A DNA stretch of 64,000 nucleotides from a bacterium (GTDB taxonomy: Bacteria; JACRDZ01; JAQUKH01): the NCBI GenBank assembly GCA_028719205.1, contig JAQUKH010000001.1:80603-144602 (forward strand), read 5' to 3'. A program made the translations under genes and the position numbers. Positions 39,634-51,149 of this stretch are shown piece by piece. The notes under the pieces were generated by a model that worked only from the letters and a program-made list of their open reading frames with translations, ran no database searches and was not told the origin of the DNA. The first letter of the stretch is position 1, and the number at the start of each line of letters is the position of its first letter.

Positions 39634-40644
39634 TTATTTCCATAGCTTTTTTATAATTATATCCGTTACATCTTCAGGCTTAATTGCCTTTAAACATTCC
39701 AGGGTCCCCTTGGGGCAACTATTGGAACCATGTAAACTGCATGGCCTGCACTTAAGATCGCGGCTCAGAACAACCGAGTTTTTCCCCACAGGGGCAAACC
39801 CGAATTCCTTAACTGTTGGCCCGAAAAATGTGATCAACGGGATACCGGCTGCGTCCGCGATATGCATCAAACCGGTATCATTGCCGATAAAATACTGGCA
39901 TTTTTTTATTAAGGCCGCTTGTGCCATCAGCCCCAGCTCATTTATGGCTATAATTGGTTTATTTTTTAAATCTTCAAATGTGCTTCCAAGTTTTTCAATA
40001 TCACCCGGCCCGCCGAATATTATAAACCTGCATTCTATTTTTTTGCTTAGATCATTCACTAATTTTTTATAATGATCCATTGGCCAACACTTTGTCTCCC
40101 AGTGCGCGAAAGGCGCAAGCCCGATCATTAGAATATCTTTACCGGCATACTTTTTTTGAAATTCTTCCGCTATTTCCTCATCACGCTTACTTATCCATAT
40201 TTCCAGCCCTTTATTATCATTTTCAATATTAAGAGGCTTTAACGCGTTAAAATAGCTGTTAATTACACTTGTATTTTCATCCAATAATTTAAGATGTAAA
40301 TTTAATAACAACCAGCGTTTTAAAATATTTTTTTTATATATCAACCTCTTTTCAACACTTAAAGTATAATCTAAATAAATGCTCCTTAAGTTACGATGAA
40401 TATCAATTATTACATCATATTTATTTTCTTTTAACTTATTTGCTAAATCTTTTATAGGCTCATTTGTTTTTAAAATTATCACTTCATTCAGATATGGGCA
40501 GTCTGCTATTAGCGGCGCAAATTCTTCTTTTACCAGCATTGAAATATGGCTTTCAGGATATTTATTGCGGACCGCGCGAATAACAGGGCTTGTTAAAACA
40601 ATATCGCCGATCGAACTAAAGCGGATTATTAATATTTTTTTCAT
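39634..40644 (-). CDS. glycosyltransferase family 9 (heptosyltransferase)
   Basis: ILIIRFSSIGDIVLTSPVIRAV. Confidence 0.8.
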   Translation of the reverse strand: MKKILIIRFSSIGDIVLTSPVIRAVRNKYPESHISMLVKEEFAPLIADCPYLNEVIILKTNEPIKDLANKLKENKYDVIIDIHRNLRSIYLDYTLSVEKRLIYKKNILKRWLLLNLHLKLLDENTSVINSYFNALKPLNIENDNKGLEIWISKRDEEIAEEFQKKYAGKDILMIGLAPFAHWETKCWPMDHYKKLVNDLSKKIECRFIIFGGPGDIEKLGSTFEDLKNKPIIAINELGLMAQAALIKKCQYFIGNDTGLMHIADAAGIPLITFFGPTVKEFGFAPVGKNSVVLSRDLKCRPCSLHGSNSCPKGTLECLKAIKPEDVTDIIIKKLWK

Positions 40645-40705: not shown

Positions 40706-41974
40706 CTAGTCCTTGTTGTCCTCTGTGAGGATAATATCAGCCTGTTTTACCGCTGACTGTTTATGTTTTTTAAAGACAAAAAACGCTTTTTCACCCATCG
40801 TCCTGTTTTTACTCTTATCCGAAAGAATTTCATTAAATGCCTGTTCCAATTCCTTCGCGTTATATACTTTTCTTCCTCCACCGCTTTTTATAAGGTCTTC
40901 CGCGACATCTTTAACATTATTGACATATGGGCCGAATAATACCGGCTTGTTAAAAGCGGCCGGTTCTAAGATATTATGCCCGTCAAACGGCTTCAGCGTG
41001 CCTCCGACAAATGAAAGATCTGATAATTTGTAAAAAGAGCTTAACTCACCCAGTGAATCAAGAATAAGTATCTTGAACTGTGGTTCGCCATTATTAGCAT
41101 TATATCTACTTCTTAACATGTAAGAAATTCCTGTTTTTTGAACCAGCTTTTCGACTTCCGGAATTCTTTCCAGATGCCTTGGGGCGAGCACAAGCATTGC
41201 ATTAGTAAATTTCACCTGGAAGTTTTTAAAGGCTTCCAATACGACCTCTTCTTCGCCGGGGCGGGTACTCCCCGCTACAATGACCGGACTTCCCATAATT
41301 ATTGAAATATCTTTATCGGTAACAGGCATAAATGAATATTTGGCATTTCCAGTAACCTCGGCTTTTTTTGATGATAGCCCAAGCGATATAATGCGGTTTT
41401 TATCAATATCCGTCTGCGCGCAGTAAAAATCTATTTTATTAACAAATTTCTTGAAAAAGAACCTGAAACTTAAATATTTGGGCCATGAGCTGTCTGATAT
41501 CCTTCCATTAACAATAATGGCCTTAATTCCCATCTGTTCAGCCTGATGTATCATGTTTGCCCATAATTCAGTTTCAGAAACAACTATGATCTTAGGATCT
41601 ATTTTTTTAATAAAGCTTTTAATAATAAAACTGAGATCTATTGGAAGAAGAGAAAAATATACCACAGGGTATCCTGCAAATATTTCTTTCGCCCTTTTCA
41701 GCCCGGTAGAGGTATAAGTGGTAACAACAAATTCAAGATCCTTATTTTTCTGGAAAAGGCTGTCCAGGATCGGATAAATCCCGCTAATTTCCCCAACCGA
41801 CGCCGCATGGAACCATATTGGTTTTTTTGATGATTTTGATTTAACCGGCGACATTATCCCTAGCCGCTGTTTCCACAAAGATAATTCGTTTTTTTTGAAT
41901 AATTTAACAATTAAATACGGGCTGGAAATGATTATAAATACTAATAATAATAGATCATAAATGAAAAATAACAT
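40706..41974 (-). CDS. waaA: 3-deoxy-D-manno-octulosonic acid (Kdo) transferase
   Basis: WFHAASVGE motif. Confidence 0.85.
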   Translation of the reverse strand: MLFFIYDLLLLVFIIISSPYLIVKLFKKNELSLWKQRLGIMSPVKSKSSKKPIWFHAASVGEISGIYPILDSLFQKNKDLEFVVTTYTSTGLKRAKEIFAGYPVVYFSLLPIDLSFIIKSFIKKIDPKIIVVSETELWANMIHQAEQMGIKAIIVNGRISDSSWPKYLSFRFFFKKFVNKIDFYCAQTDIDKNRIISLGLSSKKAEVTGNAKYSFMPVTDKDISIIMGSPVIVAGSTRPGEEEVVLEAFKNFQVKFTNAMLVLAPRHLERIPEVEKLVQKTGISYMLRSRYNANNGEPQFKILILDSLGELSSFYKLSDLSFVGGTLKPFDGHNILEPAAFNKPVLFGPYVNNVKDVAEDLIKSGGGRKVYNAKELEQAFNEILSDKSKNRTMGEKAFFVFKKHKQSAVKQADIILTEDNKD

Positions 41975-42032
41975 AGTAAGTAATTATATCTACATAATTT
42001 ATACTGGTCAAGGGTTATTAATGGGCAGGGTA

Positions 42033-43538
42033 CTATTCCATCCCTATAAGGATTCCCACCACATACTTATGCGACCTCTTTGGATTGTCCACCGCTTTTT
42101 GAGAAACTATACTAATTGCTTCCCTGTATTTCTCGATCCCATATTCATCGATCAATGAAATTATATCTTCAACGGTCACAGGATCATTTTCTTCAAATAC
42201 GACCTTAGCGAATTCTCTCGCCTGGTTCACCCTGTCCGCGCCGTATTGCTTATTCAAACTCTCCCATTTTTCTGCCTGCTTCACAGGATCATACAGGTCA
42301 AATACTTTATATTTTGAAGGTTCTCGATTTTCATAGCCTTCTTTAACATCAGAATATTCTATATCAATAATTTCGTATTTTTTTAATTCCGACATCCCTT
42401 CGCTTAAAGTAGTCCTGTGTAAATGGAAATAATTACTAAGCACATCCAGCGCATGGCTCCACCATTGGTCATTATCGCTCAGGGTTACTTCATAACGATT
42501 GACCAAATAACAGAATTTCGCCCTGAAGGAAAGCTTCTTGCTCCAGCCATAACTGAAATACTCCCCGGGAACAGTAAAATATTTCCCTTCAGGATATTTG
42601 TACGGTTTCTCACTATTTTCCGGATCAAGTAATGTTACCTTCGCATTCTCACCGATCCGCGTTTCATAATTTATAACATGATATATTTCATTTAACTTCT
42701 TTAATATTCTGTTGATCTCGCCTCTAAAAGCGGTTTTATCCATAACTTTATCCATCTCCAGATCAACCGCCATCTTGTTATAATCCAAGTCAATTAAGGC
42801 ATCCCTTTTAAATTCCCTCAGCAACAAAAGATAAATATCAAACGCCCTTTCATCACTACTGGTTATCATCCTGCCGGCCAGATTCTCATTATCCAGAAAA
42901 TATCTATACAAGGCTAATGAAGGTTCTTTTTCGCTTACATCCTTTCCCGCCTCATTATCGATAACGATCTCAGAAAAATCCTTAAGCAAAGATCGCGCCA
43001 ATTCACCTGACCTTATTAAAACCGACACCTCGTTATTTTTATTAAGTGAAGACCCGGACCAGTTGGTACTCCCCAGGACAACAACATTTTCGTCAATAAT
43101 TATCGTTTTGCTATGCGTAAATACGCTTTTAGTATCATAAAACACTTCAATACCATTCTCTTTAAAATACCTGAAAGCATTTTGATTTTTTCCCTCAATA
43201 CGCCCTCTTTCACCATCCTCCGATCTGTCATAATCAACGCTCTGATCCAGAATTACTTTAACCTGAACACCACGTTTTTTTGCGTTAACCAGGCTTTCAC
43301 AGAGTTGATATACTTCTGACTGCGTATTTTTTCCGTCCAGGCTCACGATATACATAGCCATGGATATGGATTTTTGGGATTTATCAAGGACTTCTTTGAC
43401 GGCGGGATAATATTTTCTACTGCTGATATTGGTAATTTCCGGTTCCCATAGGGGCTCAACATTTTGAGCCCTTATTATATTGGATTCGATTATTGATATA
43501 AATAAGATTAAAATAAAATATAATTGTTTGTATCTCAT
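42033..43538 (-). CDS. secreted phospholipase D-family (HKD) protein
   Basis: FTHSKTIIIDENVVVLGSTNWS HKD motif; signal peptide. Confidence 0.7.
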   Translation of the reverse strand: MRYKQLYFILILFISIIESNIIRAQNVEPLWEPEITNISSRKYYPAVKEVLDKSQKSISMAMYIVSLDGKNTQSEVYQLCESLVNAKKRGVQVKVILDQSVDYDRSEDGERGRIEGKNQNAFRYFKENGIEVFYDTKSVFTHSKTIIIDENVVVLGSTNWSGSSLNKNNEVSVLIRSGELARSLLKDFSEIVIDNEAGKDVSEKEPSLALYRYFLDNENLAGRMITSSDERAFDIYLLLLREFKRDALIDLDYNKMAVDLEMDKVMDKTAFRGEINRILKKLNEIYHVINYETRIGENAKVTLLDPENSEKPYKYPEGKYFTVPGEYFSYGWSKKLSFRAKFCYLVNRYEVTLSDNDQWWSHALDVLSNYFHLHRTTLSEGMSELKKYEIIDIEYSDVKEGYENREPSKYKVFDLYDPVKQAEKWESLNKQYGADRVNQAREFAKVVFEENDPVTVEDIISLIDEYGIEKYREAISIVSQKAVDNPKRSHKYVVGILIGME

Positions 43539-43547
43539 TATTTAATT

Positions 43548-43847
43548 TTATATTTTCTTATTTCTATTAATCCAATATTTTGGTTCACGATGCATATGGA
43601 CAACGGCAATAACATAGATATGGTCTATTTCATTTGAGTATAATATTTTGTAGGGAAATTTGTGGAGGAGGTATCTCTTAACATTTTCACTTTCAGGAGA
43701 ACCTATTTTTGGCATTTTCTTAATTATTCTAAGCACTCTTCTGGTTTCTTCTTTAAATTTTGCACCCAGGCCTTTTATTTCAATTTCGTAATATTCGATT
43801 GCGTCAGTCAATTCCTCTCTTGCCAGCTTATCAAATATTACTTTCAT
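43548..43847 (-). CDS. type II toxin RelE/ParE family
   Basis: Size, YVIAVVHMHREP C-terminal pattern, 4-nt overlap with the upstream antitoxin gene. Confidence 0.75.
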   Translation of the reverse strand: MKVIFDKLAREELTDAIEYYEIEIKGLGAKFKEETRRVLRIIKKMPKIGSPESENVKRYLLHKFPYKILYSNEIDHIYVIAVVHMHREPKYWINRNKKI

Positions 43848-44056
43848 AAACCCTCTTTGAATATTTCCTCAGCCGGTATTCCTTTACTTTTTCCTTCCCT
43901 GTAAGATTTAAGACGAGCTTCAGCCTCTTGTAACCATATTTTTGCTATTTCAGGGTCAGGTTTATCTAAACTTGAAACCAGAGCTTCAATTAAAACAATT
44001 TTTTCTTGAGGTTTTAATTCTAACGCTTTTTCTACTAATAAATTATTAATTGACAT
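43844..44056 (-). CDS. antitoxin, putative addiction module component (TIGR02574-like)
   Basis: ALELKPQEKIVLIEALVSSLD pattern. Confidence 0.7.
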   Translation of the reverse strand: MSINNLLVEKALELKPQEKIVLIEALVSSLDKPDPEIAKIWLQEAEARLKSYREGKSKGIPAEEIFKEGL

Positions 44057-44242
44057 GGCTATTCCTTTCTTTCATTCTTTGATAAATACATTACTATTAT
44101 ATTACTTTTTGATGTTTAATGGCAAGGTTATTTATTTTTTACCATTTATAAAAAGTCAATACTTTTAATCTTTTAACTACATCCCCATATTTTCCCTAGG
44201 CAACAACGTCACGGATATTTTTTATATAATTTTAAGCAAAAG

Positions 44243-44434
44243 TTATCTTTCCTCCGGAATAACTTCAATTTTAGACAGCGGGGGGAAATGCTTCGGATTA
44301 TCATTATTCAGCTTATAAGTCCACTCGTCAAATTTAAACGAACATTCATAACAACGATGTTCCTCCGCCTTACCCTTAGCATTTAAAAATCTAACCAAAA
44401 ATCCTCCGTTGGCCATGATACAAGCTCCTTTCAT
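44243..44434 (-). CDS. small hypothetical Cys/His-containing protein
   Basis: ORF only; flanked by direct repeats (see findings). Confidence 0.25.
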   Translation of the reverse strand: MKGACIMANGGFLVRFLNAKGKAEEHRCYECSFKFDEWTYKLNNDNPKHFPPLSKIEVIPEER

Positions 44435-44695
44435 TTTTTAAAAAGGGATATTTAATTCCACGGACACACCAATAACATCCCACATTCTTCTCGCCCCAGA
44501 CCTTGGAGCTAAAAGCCATCACCTATTCTTGCTGTGGAAATTGTTTGCGACTAGACAGCGCCGAACCTGAAATCAACTTCGCGTATTCCCAGAATATCAA
44601 ATCCCTGATTGTTTTAACTGCTGGTGGCGGCATAGTATTCTCTTTAATATTTCTATTTTATTAATAAGTAATGCCGAGAAACAACGTCCAGGATA

Positions 44696-45478
44696 TTAAA
44701 ATATTTCCTTTGGGACTAGTTTATAATCAGTTTTAGACAGAATCATTTTATAAATTTTTAAGTGATTATATTCTTCCCTCTGCTTTATAGATTTAGCAAT
44801 AATCTCTACTTTCTCATCAGATCTCAAGCCCAGATAAATTTCCTTTATTGATGTAATCGGTATTGTATAATAATAATTGCCATCTGAATCCACATCATCC
44901 AACTTCCAAAGAATTCTGACCTCAGTCTCATATCCCCATTTTGTTTCTTTTCTTTTTAACACATCAATAAAATCTTTCTTAAATCTCTCGCGCAATCTCC
45001 CAATTGGCAATGGCAAGGATATCATATCATCTTTGTAGTTTACTTCAATTAATGCTTCATTATCTCTTATAAATTCGCTTTCATCTATCCCGATAACTAT
45101 TCCCTTGTGATTTTCAGCATAATGCGCCCACATTTGAATTATATCCGATTTTCGGGAAAAACACGTTATTCCCATTTTCCCACAATATTCATCCCATATT
45201 TTATAAAATATTTTTTTGTCGTGTAAAATGCCTTTCAATAAAACATCGATAGAAGAATTTTCATCATAATCTATTTTAAGATCTTTCAACAATTTTTTAA
45301 AACCGTTTATTAAATCTGGATCATTTTCATGGAGCCATCGCAATTCTTCTAGCGTAGATTTTTCGTCGAAGCTAAATAGTAATTCAAAAGGATCGTTAAA
45401 GTCTTTTCTTAAGGATAACCTCAACCTTGCCTTTAAAAGAATATCAAATCCGTCTATTTTGCAATATTTATATAGCAT
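44696..45478 (-). CDS. DUF2971-family protein
   Basis: MLYKYCKIDGFDILLK...FNDPFE N-terminal signature. Confidence 0.55.
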   Translation of the reverse strand: MLYKYCKIDGFDILLKARLRLSLRKDFNDPFELLFSFDEKSTLEELRWLHENDPDLINGFKKLLKDLKIDYDENSSIDVLLKGILHDKKIFYKIWDEYCGKMGITCFSRKSDIIQMWAHYAENHKGIVIGIDESEFIRDNEALIEVNYKDDMISLPLPIGRLRERFKKDFIDVLKRKETKWGYETEVRILWKLDDVDSDGNYYYTIPITSIKEIYLGLRSDEKVEIIAKSIKQREEYNHLKIYKMILSKTDYKLVPKEIF

Positions 45479-45631
45479 TTTTACTCGCTAAATTTTATGT
45501 TTGGACACACCACAACTTTAACAAATTAGTTTTTTCAAACAATGTTTTTTAAATCTTACAATGATATTTCCCTCTAGAGAATAATGTTCAGAAAACTATT
45601 TTAGGACTTAAACAATTTTGTCACAAAACTT

Positions 45632-46525
45632 TTAGCCTGTCCTCTTAAATTTCATGTATCTTCTCTCTAACAATTCCTGATTTGGCCAAAACGAATTATT
45701 TGTCGGCAATATTATACGCTTTGAATTTAAATTCACTAATCCATGCTCCAGCATAGGACCGTCTTTTTCTATCAAAATATCTTTCCTGACCTCTATTTTA
45801 TAATCCGGAGTTATTCCTAAAATAAAACTGTCGAAGGCCGCATGATGCAGTTTGCACAATGCTATACCATTGTCAATCCGTGGATCGCCTTCCGGTTCAT
45901 TATCGGGAATAATATGCGCTGCATCTAATAATTCAGAATGTTTTAATTTACAGAATGAACACTGGCAACTATAAGCGTCTAATACTTTCTCCCTAAAAAT
46001 TCTTTGGTGAAGTCTTTGTTTTACGGTACCTGTAATGTAAGCTCTAACAGCCTGGGAATCTTCAGCAATACCGATATGTTCATTATTAACTGCAGAAATC
46101 TCACCAACAACAACATTAAATGTCAGATTTTCAGGATTATCTGAAATTATATAAACTGGCCATACTGGTGAATATTTTCCAACGGCAATTCCATGGAAAT
46201 AGATTAATGGCAATCTATTTTCAAAAGCTTTTCTTAATCCTACATTATCTCGATGATTTATGTCTGTCCCTCTGTATCGATATGAAAGAAAGCCCTCTTT
46301 GCTGTAACTGTCATTATATGGACTTTTAGGAGAAGTAGTTATTGATAATGGATAATTAAGTATTTGAGGTTTAAATATTCCTTGAGGTCCTACTAAACGT
46401 ATAGTGGAACCTTGAAAATCAAAACCTTTTTCTAATAAATTACGTGGCAGAACATCACCATGTAAGCTTGTCTGTTCTGATAACCATTGAAAGGCAGCTA
46501 TTCGGACTTTTTTATCGAGATCCAT
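45632..46525 (-). CDS. HNH endonuclease-domain protein with uncharacterised N-terminal domain
   Basis: CQCSFCKL...AAHIIP...NGIALCKLHHAAFD HNH motif. Confidence 0.65.
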   Translation of the reverse strand: MDLDKKVRIAAFQWLSEQTSLHGDVLPRNLLEKGFDFQGSTIRLVGPQGIFKPQILNYPLSITTSPKSPYNDSYSKEGFLSYRYRGTDINHRDNVGLRKAFENRLPLIYFHGIAVGKYSPVWPVYIISDNPENLTFNVVVGEISAVNNEHIGIAEDSQAVRAYITGTVKQRLHQRIFREKVLDAYSCQCSFCKLKHSELLDAAHIIPDNEPEGDPRIDNGIALCKLHHAAFDSFILGITPDYKIEVRKDILIEKDGPMLEHGLVNLNSKRIILPTNNSFWPNQELLERRYMKFKRTG

Positions 46526-46543
46526 GTTAAATATTTTATATTT

Positions 46544-47317
46544 TTATAAATGTTCATCTTTTTTAATAATATCTGGCGTCAAAAAACGTGTATCACTATT
46601 ATTAATTAAAACATTCAACGAAGACTTTCCTTCTTTTATCTTCATAGAATCACCATAAATATATATTACATTTCCATCATTAAGTAAAACACCTATATCA
46701 ACATCGCTACTAACATAAGAGGATTTTTCACTTATTTCATGAAAATAGCTAGCTATTAATTTCACAGTACAATTTATATGATTTATTAGATTATTTAAGA
46801 AAATCTCATTATCACAACTATTTGTATTTACATTATCTTGGAATTCAGTTAGTTTTTCTCGTATACAGCTCCTATATTCTTCAGATTTTTCTATAGTAAA
46901 ATTTGTTGGCAAAATTACAGCAACATCATCATACAACTCTAATTCATAATTCCATTTTGCATGCATCACAGCCAATCGTATCAATCCCTCATTATTTCTA
47001 TATGAAATCAAAAAACAAGTGTTATCTTCCGTTCCCGGATTAATCTTTTTTAGTTCTTCAATTTTTGGTTTTACACATCTCTGAATGATATCCGTAAATT
47101 CATTAGTATTAGATATTGTCTTTTGTAGAAGCTCTTTTTTAACTGCATCTAAAGCATCGACATAACCTGAGCCAGTAACAAGGCCAAAAGAACATGCTGC
47201 AATTTTATGATCACCATCCTTATGTTGTTTTCCCAAAAAAGGAATTTCCCAGGAAGCTCTCGTATCAGCAGCGATAATCGAATAAGATTTTAAATTTGCT
47301 CCAATTAGTAATGTCAT
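46544..47317 (-). CDS. hypothetical protein; N-terminus resembles an Ntn-hydrolase / HslV (proteasome beta)-like fold
   Basis: MTLLIGANLKSYSIIAADTRAS compared with HslV [22 protein letters not shown]; downstream GSG. Confidence 0.3.
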   Translation of the reverse strand: MTLLIGANLKSYSIIAADTRASWEIPFLGKQHKDGDHKIAACSFGLVTGSGYVDALDAVKKELLQKTISNTNEFTDIIQRCVKPKIEELKKINPGTEDNTCFLISYRNNEGLIRLAVMHAKWNYELELYDDVAVILPTNFTIEKSEEYRSCIREKLTEFQDNVNTNSCDNEIFLNNLINHINCTVKLIASYFHEISEKSSYVSSDVDIGVLLNDGNVIYIYGDSMKIKEGKSSLNVLINNSDTRFLTPDIIKKDEHL

Positions 47318-47500
47318 ATTAATACTGTTTCCGTTTCCGGGACGTTAGTTCCTAGTGATACATGTTTATTTAAATTCACAATTTCTTTTTGCATTTTACC
47401 ACTAAAACCCATAATATTTATTATATTTTTATAAGGATTTGGACAGGCGCTCCTGAGGCGGACAGACACAAGACCTGCTCCTACAAATACAAATATAAAT

Positions 47501-47528
47501 GTAAAAAAGGGCGTATGCCATACGCCCC
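47501..47528 (-). terminator. rho-independent terminator for the msbA-DUF374 operon
   Basis: GGGCGTAT-GGC-ATACGCCC hairpin followed by TTTTTTAC on the minus strand. Confidence 0.7.
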
Positions 47529-47540
47529 TACAAATAAAAA

Positions 47541-48218
47541 TTATTTATTGAAATATTCTTCAGCCTTAACAACAATCGCATCAAGGCTTTGTTTTAATTT
47601 ATTCTGGATTTCTCTGATTTCTTCGCCGCGGGCACTTTCGGGAACAAAAATCGGGCGGCCGTAAACGAATACGGCGTGATTGAATGGAAGAGGCAAGATA
47701 AAATTGTCCCAGCTTTTAAATACCTTTTTTTTCTTTACGTCATATATTAGAGGCAATATTGCGGCGCCCGTTTTTTTGGCTAGAAGGACCACTCCCGGCT
47801 GGACTTCATATTTCGGGCCTCGTGGGCCGTCAGGCGTGAAGCCCGTGTCATGGCCTTCTCTGACAGCTTCGATCATCTGGTTGAGCGCCCTGCGGCCGTC
47901 CGTAAAACTTGAACCTCGTATAGTTTTATATCCTACAGCCTCAATAATCCTGGTTGTGTATTCTCCATCGCGACTTGGGCTTACAAGAACCCTTATTCCC
48001 CGGTGCCTGTAATAAAAACAGGTAAAAAATATCCTGTTATGCCAGAAGGTATAAATTATTCGCGTGCCATTTCTTTTTAATTCTTCTTCGTAATGCTTAT
48101 CAACAAAATCAATTTTTGTGGTCCAGCCGATAAACTTAACAAACATGGAACCTAATACAGGGCTGATAAAAACTAATATTTTTCGATAAATATGTTTAAA
48201 CGTCCGTTTTATGCTCAT
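47541..48218 (-). CDS. DUF374 lysophospholipid-acyltransferase-like protein (commonly linked to waaA/msbA)
   Basis: TFWHNRIFF...GFTPDGPRGP pattern. Confidence 0.7.
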   Translation of the reverse strand: MSIKRTFKHIYRKILVFISPVLGSMFVKFIGWTTKIDFVDKHYEEELKRNGTRIIYTFWHNRIFFTCFYYRHRGIRVLVSPSRDGEYTTRIIEAVGYKTIRGSSFTDGRRALNQMIEAVREGHDTGFTPDGPRGPKYEVQPGVVLLAKKTGAAILPLIYDVKKKKVFKSWDNFILPLPFNHAVFVYGRPIFVPESARGEEIREIQNKLKQSLDAIVVKAEEYFNK

Positions 48219-48258: not shown

Positions 48259-48301
48259 TTTGCCCTATGCGCCATGCTCCATGCACTATGCTTTACTCTT
48301 T
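48259..48301. repeat. family-2 heptad repeat overlapping the msbA stop codon
   Basis: ttgccctatgcgccatgctccatgcactatgctttactctttg. Confidence 0.6.
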
Positions 48302-50014
48302 GAACTGCATCTCATAGAGATGTTTATACAAAGCGCATTTTTGGAGTAATTCCTCGTGTTTTCCGATATCCACGATCCTGCCTTTTTCCAAAACAACTAT
48401 ACGATCCGCGTTTACTATTGTAGACAATCTGTGAGCGATGGCGAAGGTTGTCCTGTTTTCCATTAAATTTTTAATTGCTGATTGAACCTGGCGTTCAGAC
48501 TCAGTATCAAGCGAGGATGTCGCTTCATCCAAAATCAATATCGGCGGATTTTTAAGTATTGCCCTGGCGATTGCCAGTCTTTGTCTCTGCCCGCCGGATA
48601 ATTGAACTCCGCGCTCCCCTATAATCGTGTCATATTTTTTAGGAAGCATCTCAATAAAATCCTCCGCATTGGCGCGTTTTGCAGCATCCATAACTGATTT
48701 TAATTCAGCTTCCTGATGGCCATAAGCAATATTATTCCTGACAGTATCATAAAAAAGTATAGTATCCTGTGTTACTATTCCTATCTTATCTCTTAAGGAC
48801 CTGATCTTAACATCTTTTATATCTATTCCATCAATTGTAATACGTCCCATATCAGGATCGTAAAAACGCATCAGCAGATTTACGATCGTAGTCTTCCCGG
48901 CCCCGCTTGGCCCTACTAACGCGATCATTTGTCCGGGTTTAACATCAAGATTTATATTCTGCAAAATATTCTCTTTATTTTCATAAGAAAAGCTTACGTT
49001 ATCATATTTAATACTGTTTTTTACCGCCGGCAGGTCTATTGACCCGTCTTTTTCAATAATTTGCGGTTTAACATCAAGAAGCGTAAAAATGCGTGAACTT
49101 GCGGCCTCAGCCTGCTGTATATTGTTATTTATCTGGGTTATACTTCTTACAGGCTTGTAAAAAGCCAATACCGCGGCAGTAAAACTTATAAAATCCCCTG
49201 TAGATAATTTTCCATTAGTAATTTCTTTTGCTCCATAATAAACAGCGAAACCAAAGCCGATTGATCCGAATAATTCCATCAGGGAAGGTATAGCTAAATT
49301 TATTTTTATTGTTTTCATAACCAGTTTAAAGAATCTATTATTTTCTTCCTTAAACTTTTTAATTTCATAATTTTCCATTGAAAACGCTTTCACAATACTA
49401 ATGCTTGAAAACACCTCCTGCAATAAGGCTGTAATATCAGAAAGTTTCTCCTGGACTCCCGCGTTTATCCGCCTTAATTTTTTACTATATTCAACTATCG
49501 GCCAGATTGCCAGGGGATAAATTACCACGCATAGAAACGCTAGTTTCCAGTGAAGATAAAATATATAACATCCTAATCCCAGAATAACTAAAGGTTGAAG
49601 AAACACATCAGAGAAGAGTATTGTAATTGTGTTTTGAATGGTTGAAATATCATTAAGCAGGTGTGACATCAGTTCGCCCGTACGTTTTTTATTAAAGAAA
49701 CTCAACGACATCGAATGCAAATGCGCGTAAACCTCGTCGCGGATATTCCTTATTACGCTAAGCCCTATATAATTCATTAAATACGAGTGAACGTATTGAG
49801 AAACTATTTTAAAGAAAATAACCAGAAACGCGGCCGAAATAATATACGGTAATATCGAAATATTTTTAGCAATGAAGCTTTCATCTATAATTTTTTTAAA
49901 TATCCAGAATTGCAGTGTATTCAGCAGAGCGTAGCATACCATAAAAACAAACGCGACTGACACTTTACGCCAATGGGGGGTAATGTATTTATAAAGCCTT
50001 TTAAAATTAGACAT
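48293..50014 (-). CDS. msbA: lipid A export ABC transporter permease/ATPase
   Basis: Six-TM domain + LSGGQRQRLAIARA, ILILDEATSSLD. Confidence 0.85.
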   Translation of the reverse strand: MSNFKRLYKYITPHWRKVSVAFVFMVCYALLNTLQFWIFKKIIDESFIAKNISILPYIISAAFLVIFFKIVSQYVHSYLMNYIGLSVIRNIRDEVYAHLHSMSLSFFNKKRTGELMSHLLNDISTIQNTITILFSDVFLQPLVILGLGCYIFYLHWKLAFLCVVIYPLAIWPIVEYSKKLRRINAGVQEKLSDITALLQEVFSSISIVKAFSMENYEIKKFKEENNRFFKLVMKTIKINLAIPSLMELFGSIGFGFAVYYGAKEITNGKLSTGDFISFTAAVLAFYKPVRSITQINNNIQQAEAASSRIFTLLDVKPQIIEKDGSIDLPAVKNSIKYDNVSFSYENKENILQNINLDVKPGQMIALVGPSGAGKTTIVNLLMRFYDPDMGRITIDGIDIKDVKIRSLRDKIGIVTQDTILFYDTVRNNIAYGHQEAELKSVMDAAKRANAEDFIEMLPKKYDTIIGERGVQLSGGQRQRLAIARAILKNPPILILDEATSSLDTESERQVQSAIKNLMENRTTFAIAHRLSTIVNADRIVVLEKGRIVDIGKHEELLQKCALYKHLYEMQFKE

Positions 50015-51149
50015 TATTTTTTAACTCCTTTAGGATTGATAAAGCCGCTCGATTGGCCGCCCCGGACACCCCCAGTTTCCCGCGAATTTCTATCAAATTA
50101 TTCTTCATTTCCTTCCGCGTATTTTCATCCCTTATTATTTCAGACACAACAGGAAATATTTTTTTTGTCTTCGCGTTACCCTGAAGGAGCTCAGGCACTA
50201 TCATCTTTTGCGCTAAAACATTCGGCAGGCCCAGATAAGGAATCTTAATCAAAATCCTGGCCAGAATTGACGTAAAGAAACTTACCTTCCCTAAAATTAC
50301 CATTGGTGTTTCTAATATAGCCGTTTCCAATGTAGCAGTACCGGAGGCAACCATGACAAGGGTGGAAATAGATATAAGTTCATAATTCCACCCGCTTATA
50401 ATCGATATGGGAAAATCCAATTTCTTTAGTTTGTCTTCAATTATTTTAATATTCAGATTATTGGCCCAGCAAATGAAAAACTGGCTTTCAGGTATATTTT
50501 TTTTGACTTTCGTGCAGACATCAACCATAATAGGAAGTAATTTATCTATTTCATCAGACCGGCTTCCCGGCAAAAGGCCTATTATAGGGTTATTCGCGTT
50601 AAACCCGAATTTTTTCATTGTTTCTTCTTTTGATAGTTTAGATTTAACCAAATCTAAAAGCGGATGGCCGACAAATTCAACATTTACTCCCGCGTTTTTA
50701 TATATGTCCTCCTCAAAGGGAAAAACTACTATCATTTTTGTTACTAATTTCTTTAAAACATTTATTCGCCCTTTGTTCCAGGCCCATATTTGCGGGCTAA
50801 TGTAATAAATAACCGGTATCCTCTGTTCATTTATAAAACGTGCCAACCGGATATTAAAACCGGGATAATCTATCAGAACAACCAGGGACGGTTTTTCTTT
50901 ATAAATAAATTTTTTAATTTCATCAAAGGCTTTTCTTATTAACCCCAGGCGTGAAAATATTTCCGTGAAACCGAATATTGCCAATTGTGTTGATTCAAAT
51001 ATGATCTTTGCGCCTGAAGCCTCCATTTTTTTGCTTCCAACAGCATAAATTTCAAGATCCGGATCCAATTTTTTTAGTTCCTGAGTTAATAACCCGCCAT
51101 GCAGGTCACCTGATGCCTCACCTGTTACAATTAATATTTTATTTGACAA
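50007..51149 (-). CDS. lpxB: lipid-A-disaccharide synthase
   Basis: IVTGEASGDLHGG N-terminal motif. Confidence 0.9.
   Translation of the reverse strand: MSNKILIVTGEASGDLHGGLLTQELKKLDPDLEIYAVGSKKMEASGAKIIFESTQLAIFGFTEIFSRLGLIRKAFDEIKKFIYKEKPSLVVLIDYPGFNIRLARFINEQRIPVIYYISPQIWAWNKGRINVLKKLVTKMIVVFPFEEDIYKNAGVNVEFVGHPLLDLVKSKLSKEETMKKFGFNANNPIIGLLPGSRSDEIDKLLPIMVDVCTKVKKNIPESQFFICWANNLNIKIIEDKLKKLDFPISIISGWNYELISISTLVMVASGTATLETAILETPMVILGKVSFFTSILARILIKIPYLGLPNVLAQKMIVPELLQGNAKTKKIFPVVSEIIRDENTRKEMKNNLIEIRGKLGVSGAANRAALSILKELKNNV

Follow-up and report, generated by a model that had tools for sequence, protein, structure and literature searches.

A probable cargo site with candidate defence genes and a proteasome-like orphan at the DUF374–waaA junction of a lipopolysaccharide gene cluster

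A 64,000-nucleotide stretch of bacterial DNA (the window; positions 80,603 to 144,602 of the forward strand of contig JAQUKH010000001.1, assembly GCA_028719205.1) contains a lipopolysaccharide (LPS) gene cluster in which the genes for a DUF374 protein and for the Kdo transferase WaaA are separated by a gap of 5.57 kb. The locus raises the question of what this intervening DNA is. An original prediction, made from the sequence alone, had placed a mini defence island at 43548-47528, with a ParE/RelE toxin and its antitoxin, a tiny Cys/His open reading frame (ORF), a DUF2971 protein, an HNH endonuclease with an unassigned N-terminal domain, and an HslV-like orphan. All of these ORFs are present in the ORF list where they had been placed and are co-oriented on the minus strand, and the guesses as to their families were borne out by Pfam, NCBIfam and PADLOC scans and by fold searches. 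The evidence supports the reading as an islet of defence and addiction genes inside the LPS cluster: the DUF374–waaA junction is probably a cargo site, occupied by some 5.5 kb of conflict genes that act independently of one another and are co-directional with the LPS genes. Gene content, folds, conserved residues, presence or absence in relatives, and composition were read directly from the data.

The DUF374–waaA junction in the window and in relatives

Relatives of the locus were sought with DUF374; the genome scan yielded one close locus (L009) and three distant ones, and the metagenome scan yielded distant loci only. In L009, the closest relative found (nucleotide identity 73% for msbA, 77% for DUF374 and 72.5% for waaA), the distance from the DUF374 stop to the waaA start is about 650 bp and is filled only by genes for a HicB antitoxin and a HicA toxin (2122-2593). 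In the distant locus L011, in the Deferribacteraceae loci L012, L020 and L021, and in L019, waaA follows DUF374 after 35-250 bp. Because the two genes are directly adjacent in these distant lineages, the adjacent DUF374–waaA pair is the conserved arrangement, to which the window adds further DNA. The arrangement of the window is thus not conserved in synteny among the relatives, of which L009 holds HicBA only and the distant lineages show direct adjacency. Since L009 carries HicB-HicA at the same site, what the cargo of the two genomes has in common is a toxin–antitoxin module. The msbA gene of L009 (1-1157) occupies two frames (about 1-765 and 756-1142), through a frameshift or through an error in the assembly of the metagenome-assembled genome (MAG).

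Homology to L009 ends at 47534, just beyond the DUF374 stop; it is back around the TGACC of a promoter-like site upstream of waaA when compared by eye, and the blastn alignment is back at 41830. From the edges at which this homology stops and resumes, a variable segment of about 42015-47533 is derived, which includes a gene for a phospholipase-D-superfamily (PLD) protein. The predicted insertion between LPS genes is therefore upheld by L009, by the distant lineages and by base composition; its predicted extent is not, the segment being about 5.5 kb long with the PLD gene included. The GC content at third codon positions (GC3) of the cargo is 0.17 for the antitoxin, 0.18 for the orphan, 0.24 for the HNH gene, and 0.29 each for the DUF2971 and ParE genes, versus 0.35-0.41 for six flanking LPS genes. 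Host-like values inside the segment are those of the PLD gene (0.40) and of the 63-amino-acid Cys/His ORF (0.375). The same 6.3 kb stretch was independently assembled from another sequencing run (L001).

No signature of a mobile element was detected at the locus: there are no tRNA genes between positions 38 and 52 kb in the window, no Rfam match at the locus, no integrase, transposase or recombinase among the ORFs of the window, and direct or inverted repeats at the segment edges only at chance level. Because of this absence of a recombinase, a tRNA and a target-site repeat, turnover of the cargo most likely proceeds by homologous recombination in the conserved flanks, which we infer to be the simplest route of exchange. 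The junction resembles core-genome defence hotspots such as those of Pseudomonas aeruginosa (PMC10250203) in having core-gene flanks, differing defence and toxin–antitoxin cargo, and no mobility genes; it differs in that it splits an LPS gene pair and is seen in two genomes of an uncultivated lineage only.

The strong terminator that had been proposed for the neighbouring operon is real and ends lpxB–msbA–DUF374 (10-bp stem followed by a T-run; -15.2 kcal/mol, z = -4.1 versus shuffled sequences). It had also been thought to close off the islet, which was wrong; transcription reaches the hairpin before the islet, so that the hairpin would insulate the islet rather than close it. The hairpin marks the upstream edge of the variable segment, and the promoter-like site in front of waaA marks the downstream edge. 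A second head, ATTTGTAGGAGC, is located at 47488-47477, 47 nt downstream of the terminator head ATTTGTAGGGGCGTATGGCATACGCCC; both heads were found by pattern search, and an 18-nt direct repeat at the terminator constitutes family D13. In L009, between hicA and waaA (about 2590-2660), there are two oppositely oriented GTAG-headed units, GTAGGCGCAAGCTTTAGCTTGCG and CGCAGGCTGAAGCCTGCGGCTAC. The GTAG-headed palindromes at the cargo junctions (47477-47541 in the window, and in L009) resemble elements of the repetitive extragenic palindromic (REP) type, of which the window has only two copies.

The features of the locus are summarized in Table 1. Every gene between 39.6 and 51.1 kb of the window is carried on the minus strand, and the flanks of the islet represent an LPS cluster (LpxB, ABC exporter, DUF374, Kdo transferase and GT9 heptosyltransferase).

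Table 1. Features of the locus, in order of transcription (positions are those of the window)
Feature	Position	Strand	Evidence or remark
lpxB	50007-51149	minus	first in transcription order
MsbA-type ABC exporter	48293-50014	minus	after lpxB
DUF374	47541-48218	minus	after msbA
Intrinsic-terminator hairpin, GTAG-type head ATTTGTAGGGGC	47529-47507	minus	after DUF374; terminator scan
Orphan, 257 amino acids, proteasome-beta/Anbu-like N-terminal nucleophile hydrolase	46544-47317	minus	fold
SRA-HNH protein, 297 amino acids, candidate type IV endonuclease	45632-46525	minus	PF13391 and fold
DUF2971 protein, 260 amino acids, ADP-ribosyltransferase-like	44696-45478	minus	PF11185, PADLOC PDC-S31
Three short unassigned ORFs (36 amino acids, 43 amino acids, 63-amino-acid Cys/His)	44243-44633	minus	three-frame translation
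Antitoxin, 70 amino acids, 'addiction module component' family	43844-44056	minus	PF09720/TIGR02574
ParE/RelE-superfamily toxin, 99 amino acids	43548-43847	minus	PF05016
PLD-superfamily protein, 501 amino acids, single HKD	42033-43538	minus	PLDc_2
Promoter-like TTGACC-17-TATAAT directly upstream of waaA	42011-41983	minus	read from sequence
waaA (Kdo transferase)	40706-41974	minus	
GT9 heptosyltransferase	39634-40644	minus	last in transcription order

Predicted products of the cargo genes

The HNH protein matches PF13391 (HNH_2) at 5.4e-10 over residues 189-238, and no Pfam family is matched by residues 1-165. A structure-based fold search revealed an SRA fold (PUA superfamily) for this N-terminal domain, in support of the modified-base-binding domain that had been suggested for it, and the layout of the protein (hereafter SRA-HNH) comprises the SRA domain (about 1-142), a linker (143-170) and the HNH domain (187-240). 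Fold matches were obtained with the SRA domain of SUVH5 (11.1), TagI (10.6), SUVH4 (10.4) and SUVH6 (10.1), and furthermore with ScoMcrA SBD-SRA (10.0), UHRF1 (9.9), MspJI (8.0) and LpnPI (7.9). In an alignment of homologues, the zinc/HNH residues C189, C192, H204, N219, C224, H227 and H228 are invariant. All of 28 homologues share Y70, D72 and Y82, whose Tyr–Tyr spacing of 12 equals that of Y55/Y67 in TagI, a comparison on the level of sequence, with low pLDDT for residues 68-70. Among PDB sequences, the profile matched only the EVE-HNH enzyme VcaM4I, in its HNH region (E 0.009).

The SRA-HNH family is very large, with more than 7770 clusters, and the best 120 of these are 59-68% identical over the full length; MAGs of Chloroflexota and Anaerolineales are among the best homologues. 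Homologues with 30-38% identity are located on plasmids of Proteobacteria, Cyanobacteria and Actinomyces and are labelled only "HNH endonuclease". One homologue (P0066) stands alone among housekeeping genes, which fits a one-gene enzyme, since a partnerless setting is expected for such an enzyme. TagI is a 285-amino-acid SRA-HNH enzyme that cuts DNA containing 5-methylcytosine (5mC) and 5-hydroxymethylcytosine (5hmC), with a pocket formed by Y55, D58 and Y67 (PMC6212794). The protein of the window shares with TagI and ScoA3IV the SRA plus HNH architecture of modification-dependent restriction enzymes (ScoA3IV/Sco5333, TbiR51I, TagI; PDB 6GHS). In contrast to TagI, to which it shows no significant sequence similarity, it has its Asp at Tyr+2 and not at Tyr+3, and its clade, very large and tightly conserved, is a separate one. 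As judged from the modelled fold, the SRA-HNH protein most likely would work like a type IV enzyme, from a clade separate from the characterised enzymes. No methyltransferase motifs were found in the 64 kb window.

The DUF2971 protein was assigned correctly by the original prediction (PF11185; 29.7 bits versus a cut-off of 22). It matches the PADLOC model PDC-S31 (PDLC04990) at 2.1e-36, with residues 1-255 aligned to model positions 8-254 of 259, and the phage protein family phrog_1762 at 7e-45. The PADLOC scan that had been proposed as a check for defence genes hence recognised this protein, and it contained no model for the orphan or for the toxin–antitoxin pair. DUF2971 proteins are described as ADP-ribosyltransferase-like (H-Y-E clade, kin to DarT and AbiGi); their motif II Tyr is strictly conserved, and they have an ExE motif (PMC12522546); in the protein of the window, these are represented by WAHY120 and by E184-T-E186. 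For one member of the family, Aristaios of a lactococcal plasmid, antiphage activity was measured, and the phenotype was that of abortive infection (PMC11381338). The gene in the window is like Aristaios and PDC-S31 in that a single DUF2971 protein with an ADP-ribosyltransferase-like core and both motifs is encoded; it is unlike Aristaios in its length (260 versus 316 amino acids) and in its origin from a distant phylum. It is a candidate single-gene defence protein.

The toxin–antitoxin pair was also correctly recognised, with both families above cut-off (toxin, PF05016, 27.5 bits versus 23; antitoxin, PF09720 at 5.4e-16 and TIGR02574 at 6.8e-11). The antitoxin gene is upstream, its stop and the toxin start share 4 bp (ATGA), and it is preceded by a sigma-70-like site (TTGCCA-18-TATAAT, 11/12 positions) at 44125-44096. 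In gene order, overlap, protein sizes (70 and 99 amino acids) and the strong promoter-like site, the pair is like other type II ParE/RelE pairs, with nothing unusual; gyrase or ribosome-bound mRNA would be the possible targets of the toxin.

Between this pair and the DUF2971 gene, the 36- and 43-amino-acid ORFs lie in one frame, parted by a single TAG, and the predicted Cys/His ORF is present in another frame (63 amino acids, 44243-44434), with no family in any library. Searches of Pfam, NCBIfam, PADLOC, PHROGs and the plasmid collection with these small ORFs, as separate and as stitched translations, yielded nothing, and the region 44243-44633 represents a probable decayed gene, as far as its reading frames indicate. 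A decayed small HNH gene of an "MPP..VKTIRDLIYWEYAKLI" family was considered for this region and is unsupported, the translations having matched nothing.

The PLD protein matches PLDc_2 at 1.4e-24 and has one HKD motif (H142/K144/D149) and a signal-peptide-like N-terminus. Its C-terminal region gave weak matches of DnaD-like and replication-O-like type (phrog_186, DnaD-like, at 5.8e-4 for residues 347-497; Pfam DnaB_2 at 0.021). The models for DrmC, NucT and the cardiolipin-synthase equivalogs all scored far below cut-off. DrmC of a DISARM system was rejected (NF038319, 68.7 bits versus a cut-off of 133), and there are no DrmA, DrmB or methylase neighbours among the scanned proteins. The single HKD in a PLDc_2 domain is as in Nuc, NucT, BfiI and DrmC, and the N-terminal signal peptide as in Nuc and NucT; unlike these four, the protein has about 300 additional C-terminal amino acids with the weak DnaD-like match. 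A secreted Nuc/NucT-like nuclease with a DNA-binding tail is the favoured assignment, and a lipid enzyme is a less likely alternative.

The PLD family has 193 members of about 500 amino acids, with identity falling smoothly through MAGs of Omnitrophota, Elusimicrobiota and Atribacterota. This graded identity and the host-like GC3 suggest a long-resident gene of the lineage. The PLD gene is absent at the DUF374–waaA junction of L009, L011, L012 and L019. Elsewhere, one homologue follows a PAP2 gene (L024), and another lies between Dcm/HATPase_c_3 and AlwI-type restriction-modification systems near a serine recombinase (L025, 3362-15946).

The proteasome-like orphan and its genomic contexts

The AlphaFold2 model of the orphan (pLDDT 89.6, pTM 0.88) has the four-layer alpha-beta-beta-alpha fold of N-terminal nucleophile (Ntn) hydrolases, of the proteasome type. 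Fold scores were 17.7 for Anbu, 17.6-15 for many 20S beta subunits and about 13-14.6 for alpha subunits, and lower for BPH (13.1), HslV (12.1) and other Ntn hydrolases (11.6 or less). The label 'HslV-like' is accurate as to the proteasome-type fold and imprecise as to the kin of the protein, which is proteasome-beta/Anbu-like: HslV itself was ruled out by its score below those of Anbu and 20S beta and by the lack of an HslU-type AAA+ neighbour. Anbu was ruled out by operon context. The Anbu operon comprises ATP-grasp, Alpha-E and transglutaminase genes, and no such families are present in the window, in L002-L008 or in L022.

The orphan has only 22 close homologues in 5.8 billion clusters. A profile search of 1.84 billion representatives (50% identity clusters) yielded at least 264 matches at E <=0.001, of which 151 are at <=1e-10. 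No Pfam family was matched by any of 61 diverse members; the Pfam Proteasome model PF00227 found 0 of the 61 at E <=0.01, and one of the 22 at E 0.021. Among the 61 representatives, residue 2 is Thr in 55 and Ser in 5, D18 is present in 59 (plus one E), and K38 and G51 are present in all; 54 members begin directly with Met-Thr or Met-Ser. In sub-threshold alignments with proteasome beta subunits, T2 coincides with Thr1 and D18 with residue 17. T2, D18 and K38 are hence putative catalytic residues (equivalents of Thr1, Asp17 and Lys33), with G49/G51 in a putative oxyanion-hole region. In its primary structure, the orphan looks like a proteasome-type N-terminal nucleophile enzyme that needs no propeptide, and activity is predicted on this basis. 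Unlike the known Ntn hydrolases with Thr1 (20S beta, Anbu, BPH, HslV, connectase), the orphan is longer (257 amino acids), with long H2 and H4 helices, and has a conserved C-terminal LTPDIFKEG motif.

Six distinct genomic contexts of the family were read, including the window, and all six are variable regions rich in restriction-modification, toxin–antitoxin or mobile-element genes. In the window, the orphan adjoins the SRA-HNH gene, and since the two genes are only 18 bp apart, co-transcription is suggested. In L002/L003, it adjoins a Dcm methylase, HATPase_c_3 and Vsr set, and in L006 a Type ISP enzyme and a Y1 transposase. In L004/L005, it is part of an element that also carries TraU and TraH, and it comes immediately behind MauJ-like, ThiF E1, Prok-E2_E and Multi_ubiq-like genes, with a SMODS cyclase and an Eco57I-like gene further on. 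In L007/L008, a MauJ-like gene and then an integrase come after it, and in L022, a decayed copy lies among methylase, Fic, HicA and MNT/HEPN genes. There is no constant partner; a MauJ-like gene is present in two of the six contexts, and none was detected in the window by tblastn. This gene may be a facultative partner.

Several of these loci were inspected further. At 4769-8792 of L004 (609-4596 of L005), a tight same-strand array consists of a Multi_ubiq-like gene (94 amino acids; PF14452 at E 0.0018, below cut-off), Prok-E2_E, a ThiF-type E1, a 41-amino-acid ORF, the MauJ-like gene and, at its end, a homologue 51% identical to the orphan, which in L004 starts 1 bp past the end of the MauJ-like gene. 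These arrays set ubiquitin-like conjugation genes beside a proteasome-type enzyme in bacteria. At 1347-3105 of L007 and 115-1873 of L008, the homologue precedes a MauJ-like gene (32% identical to that of L004), in reverse order relative to L004, and a gene with a helix-turn-helix (HTH) domain and a tyrosine integrase gene are next. The homologue in L022 (6915-7701) is broken into pieces of 41, 175 and 58 amino acids amid a region rich in toxin–antitoxin and Fic genes; this decayed copy is consistent with rapid turnover of the gene. In the window, there is a 4-bp overlap between the orphan start codon and a GTG-initiated ORF of 51 amino acids (47314-47469), which matches no family, has no equivalent ahead of the examined homologues, and is probably not a gene. 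No match of the orphan was found by tblastn in the phage or plasmid collections, no match was confirmed in IMG/VR, and BFVD gave distant fold matches only.

In a survey by Fuchs, Alva and Lupas (2021), 22 further uncharacterised families of proteasome homologues were reported with no informative genomic context (PMC8665760). The orphan family, possibly one of these (for example of their clusters PMI or PHI), occurs in defence, toxin–antitoxin and mobile regions. Most likely, the orphan acts as a hydrolase on its own and accompanies defence genes as they move. That it stands for a new class of defence-island, proteasome-like threonine hydrolases, wired in some elements to conjugation of ubiquitin-like proteins (Ubl) and stand-alone in the window, is a more ambitious proposal that we consider unlikely at present.

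Alternative explanations, proposed mechanism and significance

Several observations weigh against the islet as a site of conflict genes. The close relative is a single one on a 3.4 kb contig, and it is from L009 plus the distant lineages that gain or loss is given a direction and a time. Toxin–antitoxin modules and HNH genes can also be simply selfish elements. PDC-S31 is a candidate and not a validated defence system, and the orphan and the 63-amino-acid ORF are recognised by neither PADLOC nor Pfam. The HNH half of the SRA-HNH protein was modelled poorly (pLDDT <50 for residues 143-233), and neither TagI nor ScoMcrA came up at E <=1 when all PDB sequences were searched with a profile. Finally, in view of its host-like GC3 and graded identity, the PLD gene may be an ordinary gene of the lineage and not defence cargo.

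Two alternative histories of the segment were considered. One is that no defence island exists, the segment being made up of selfish or neutral genes (addiction module, homing-type HNH, pseudogenes) together with a housekeeping proteasome-like protease and an envelope-lipid PLD enzyme. The full-length PLD family with its graded identity across related phyla and host-like GC3, the PLD homologue beside a PAP2 lipid phosphatase, the weak NCBIfam cardiolipin-synthase matches, the decayed gene, and the contexts of new proteasome homologues, which Fuchs et al. (2021) found uninformative, are all in keeping with it. However, the PLD protein combines a single HKD and a signal peptide with a DnaD-like tail, its cardiolipin-synthase scores are far below cut-offs, and its homologue in L025 has restriction-modification systems on both sides; an SRA sensor fused to HNH is the architecture of a restriction enzyme and not of a homing nuclease, the whole length of the DUF2971 protein is matched by a defence-candidate model, and the orphan, with only 22 close homologues, is always found in variable regions. 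We regard the absence of a defence island as decidedly unlikely. The other history, in which the arrangement of the window is ancestral and L009 lost the genes by deletion before gaining HicAB, draws on the single close relative with its short contig and frameshifted msbA, and on the compositionally adapted PLD gene. It is highly improbable in view of the direct DUF374–waaA adjacency in four more distant lineages, the strongly deviant GC3 of five cargo genes, and the homologues of cargo genes in unrelated contexts elsewhere.

A further alternative concerns the organisation of the cargo: the orphan and SRA-HNH could form one two-gene system, in which the protease activates, restrains or backs up the nuclease (by processing, or as a trigger of abortive infection), as in AmaNI. 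The two genes are co-oriented and 18 bp apart and have the lowest GC3 of the islet (0.18 and 0.24) apart from the antitoxin; AmaNI is a natural fusion of a protease (caspase) with SRA-HNH (PMC6765204), and genes for DNA modification or restriction are immediately adjacent in four of the six orphan contexts. Yet an SRA-HNH gene is present in none of the five other contexts, the single context of an SRA-HNH homologue that was examined has no protease neighbour, and the more than 7770 SRA-HNH clusters compare with 22 close and 264 distant orphan homologues. Because of this mismatch in cluster counts, an obligate pairing is impossible for most members. We regard a two-gene system in the window as very unlikely.

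For a cargo site with independently acting conflict genes, which we prefer, the following mechanism is proposed, in which every biochemical activity and the defence phenotype are predicted. The terminator after DUF374 and the promoter-like site of waaA itself would insulate the islet from its flanks. In SRA-HNH, 5mC or 5hmC of invading DNA would be flipped into the SRA pocket (Y70, D72, Y82), and the zinc-stabilised HNH domain would cut nearby; this would represent type IV restriction of the TagI/ScoA3IV type against phages with modified cytosines, compatible with a host that lacks C5 methylation. The DUF2971 protein might act in Aristaios-like abortive infection via NAD-dependent modification of DNA or protein. 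The PF09720 antitoxin and the ParE/RelE toxin would stabilise the islet and may also abort infection. The PLD protein could be a Nuc/NucT-like periplasmic nuclease, encoded by an older, compositionally adapted resident gene, and the orphan could be a protease-type effector or regulator that travels with the defence genes.

The islet itself is routine, i.e. one more core-gene hotspot, located at an LPS-cluster junction of an uncultivated lineage. For the SRA-HNH clade, the fold evidence suggests that thousands of genes labelled "HNH endonuclease" encode modification-dependent restriction enzymes, and members of the clade are possible reagents for the mapping of 5mC and 5hmC. The most interesting part is the proteasome-like family that recurs in conflict regions: it provides a clue from genomic context (defence, toxin–antitoxin and mobile regions, MauJ-like genes, and Ubl, E2 and E1 genes) where the 2021 survey proposed none. 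If the proposal of a new class of hydrolases wired to Ubl conjugation were true, Ubl tagging and a proteasome-type enzyme would be coupled in bacteria as a means of conflict with phages or plasmids.

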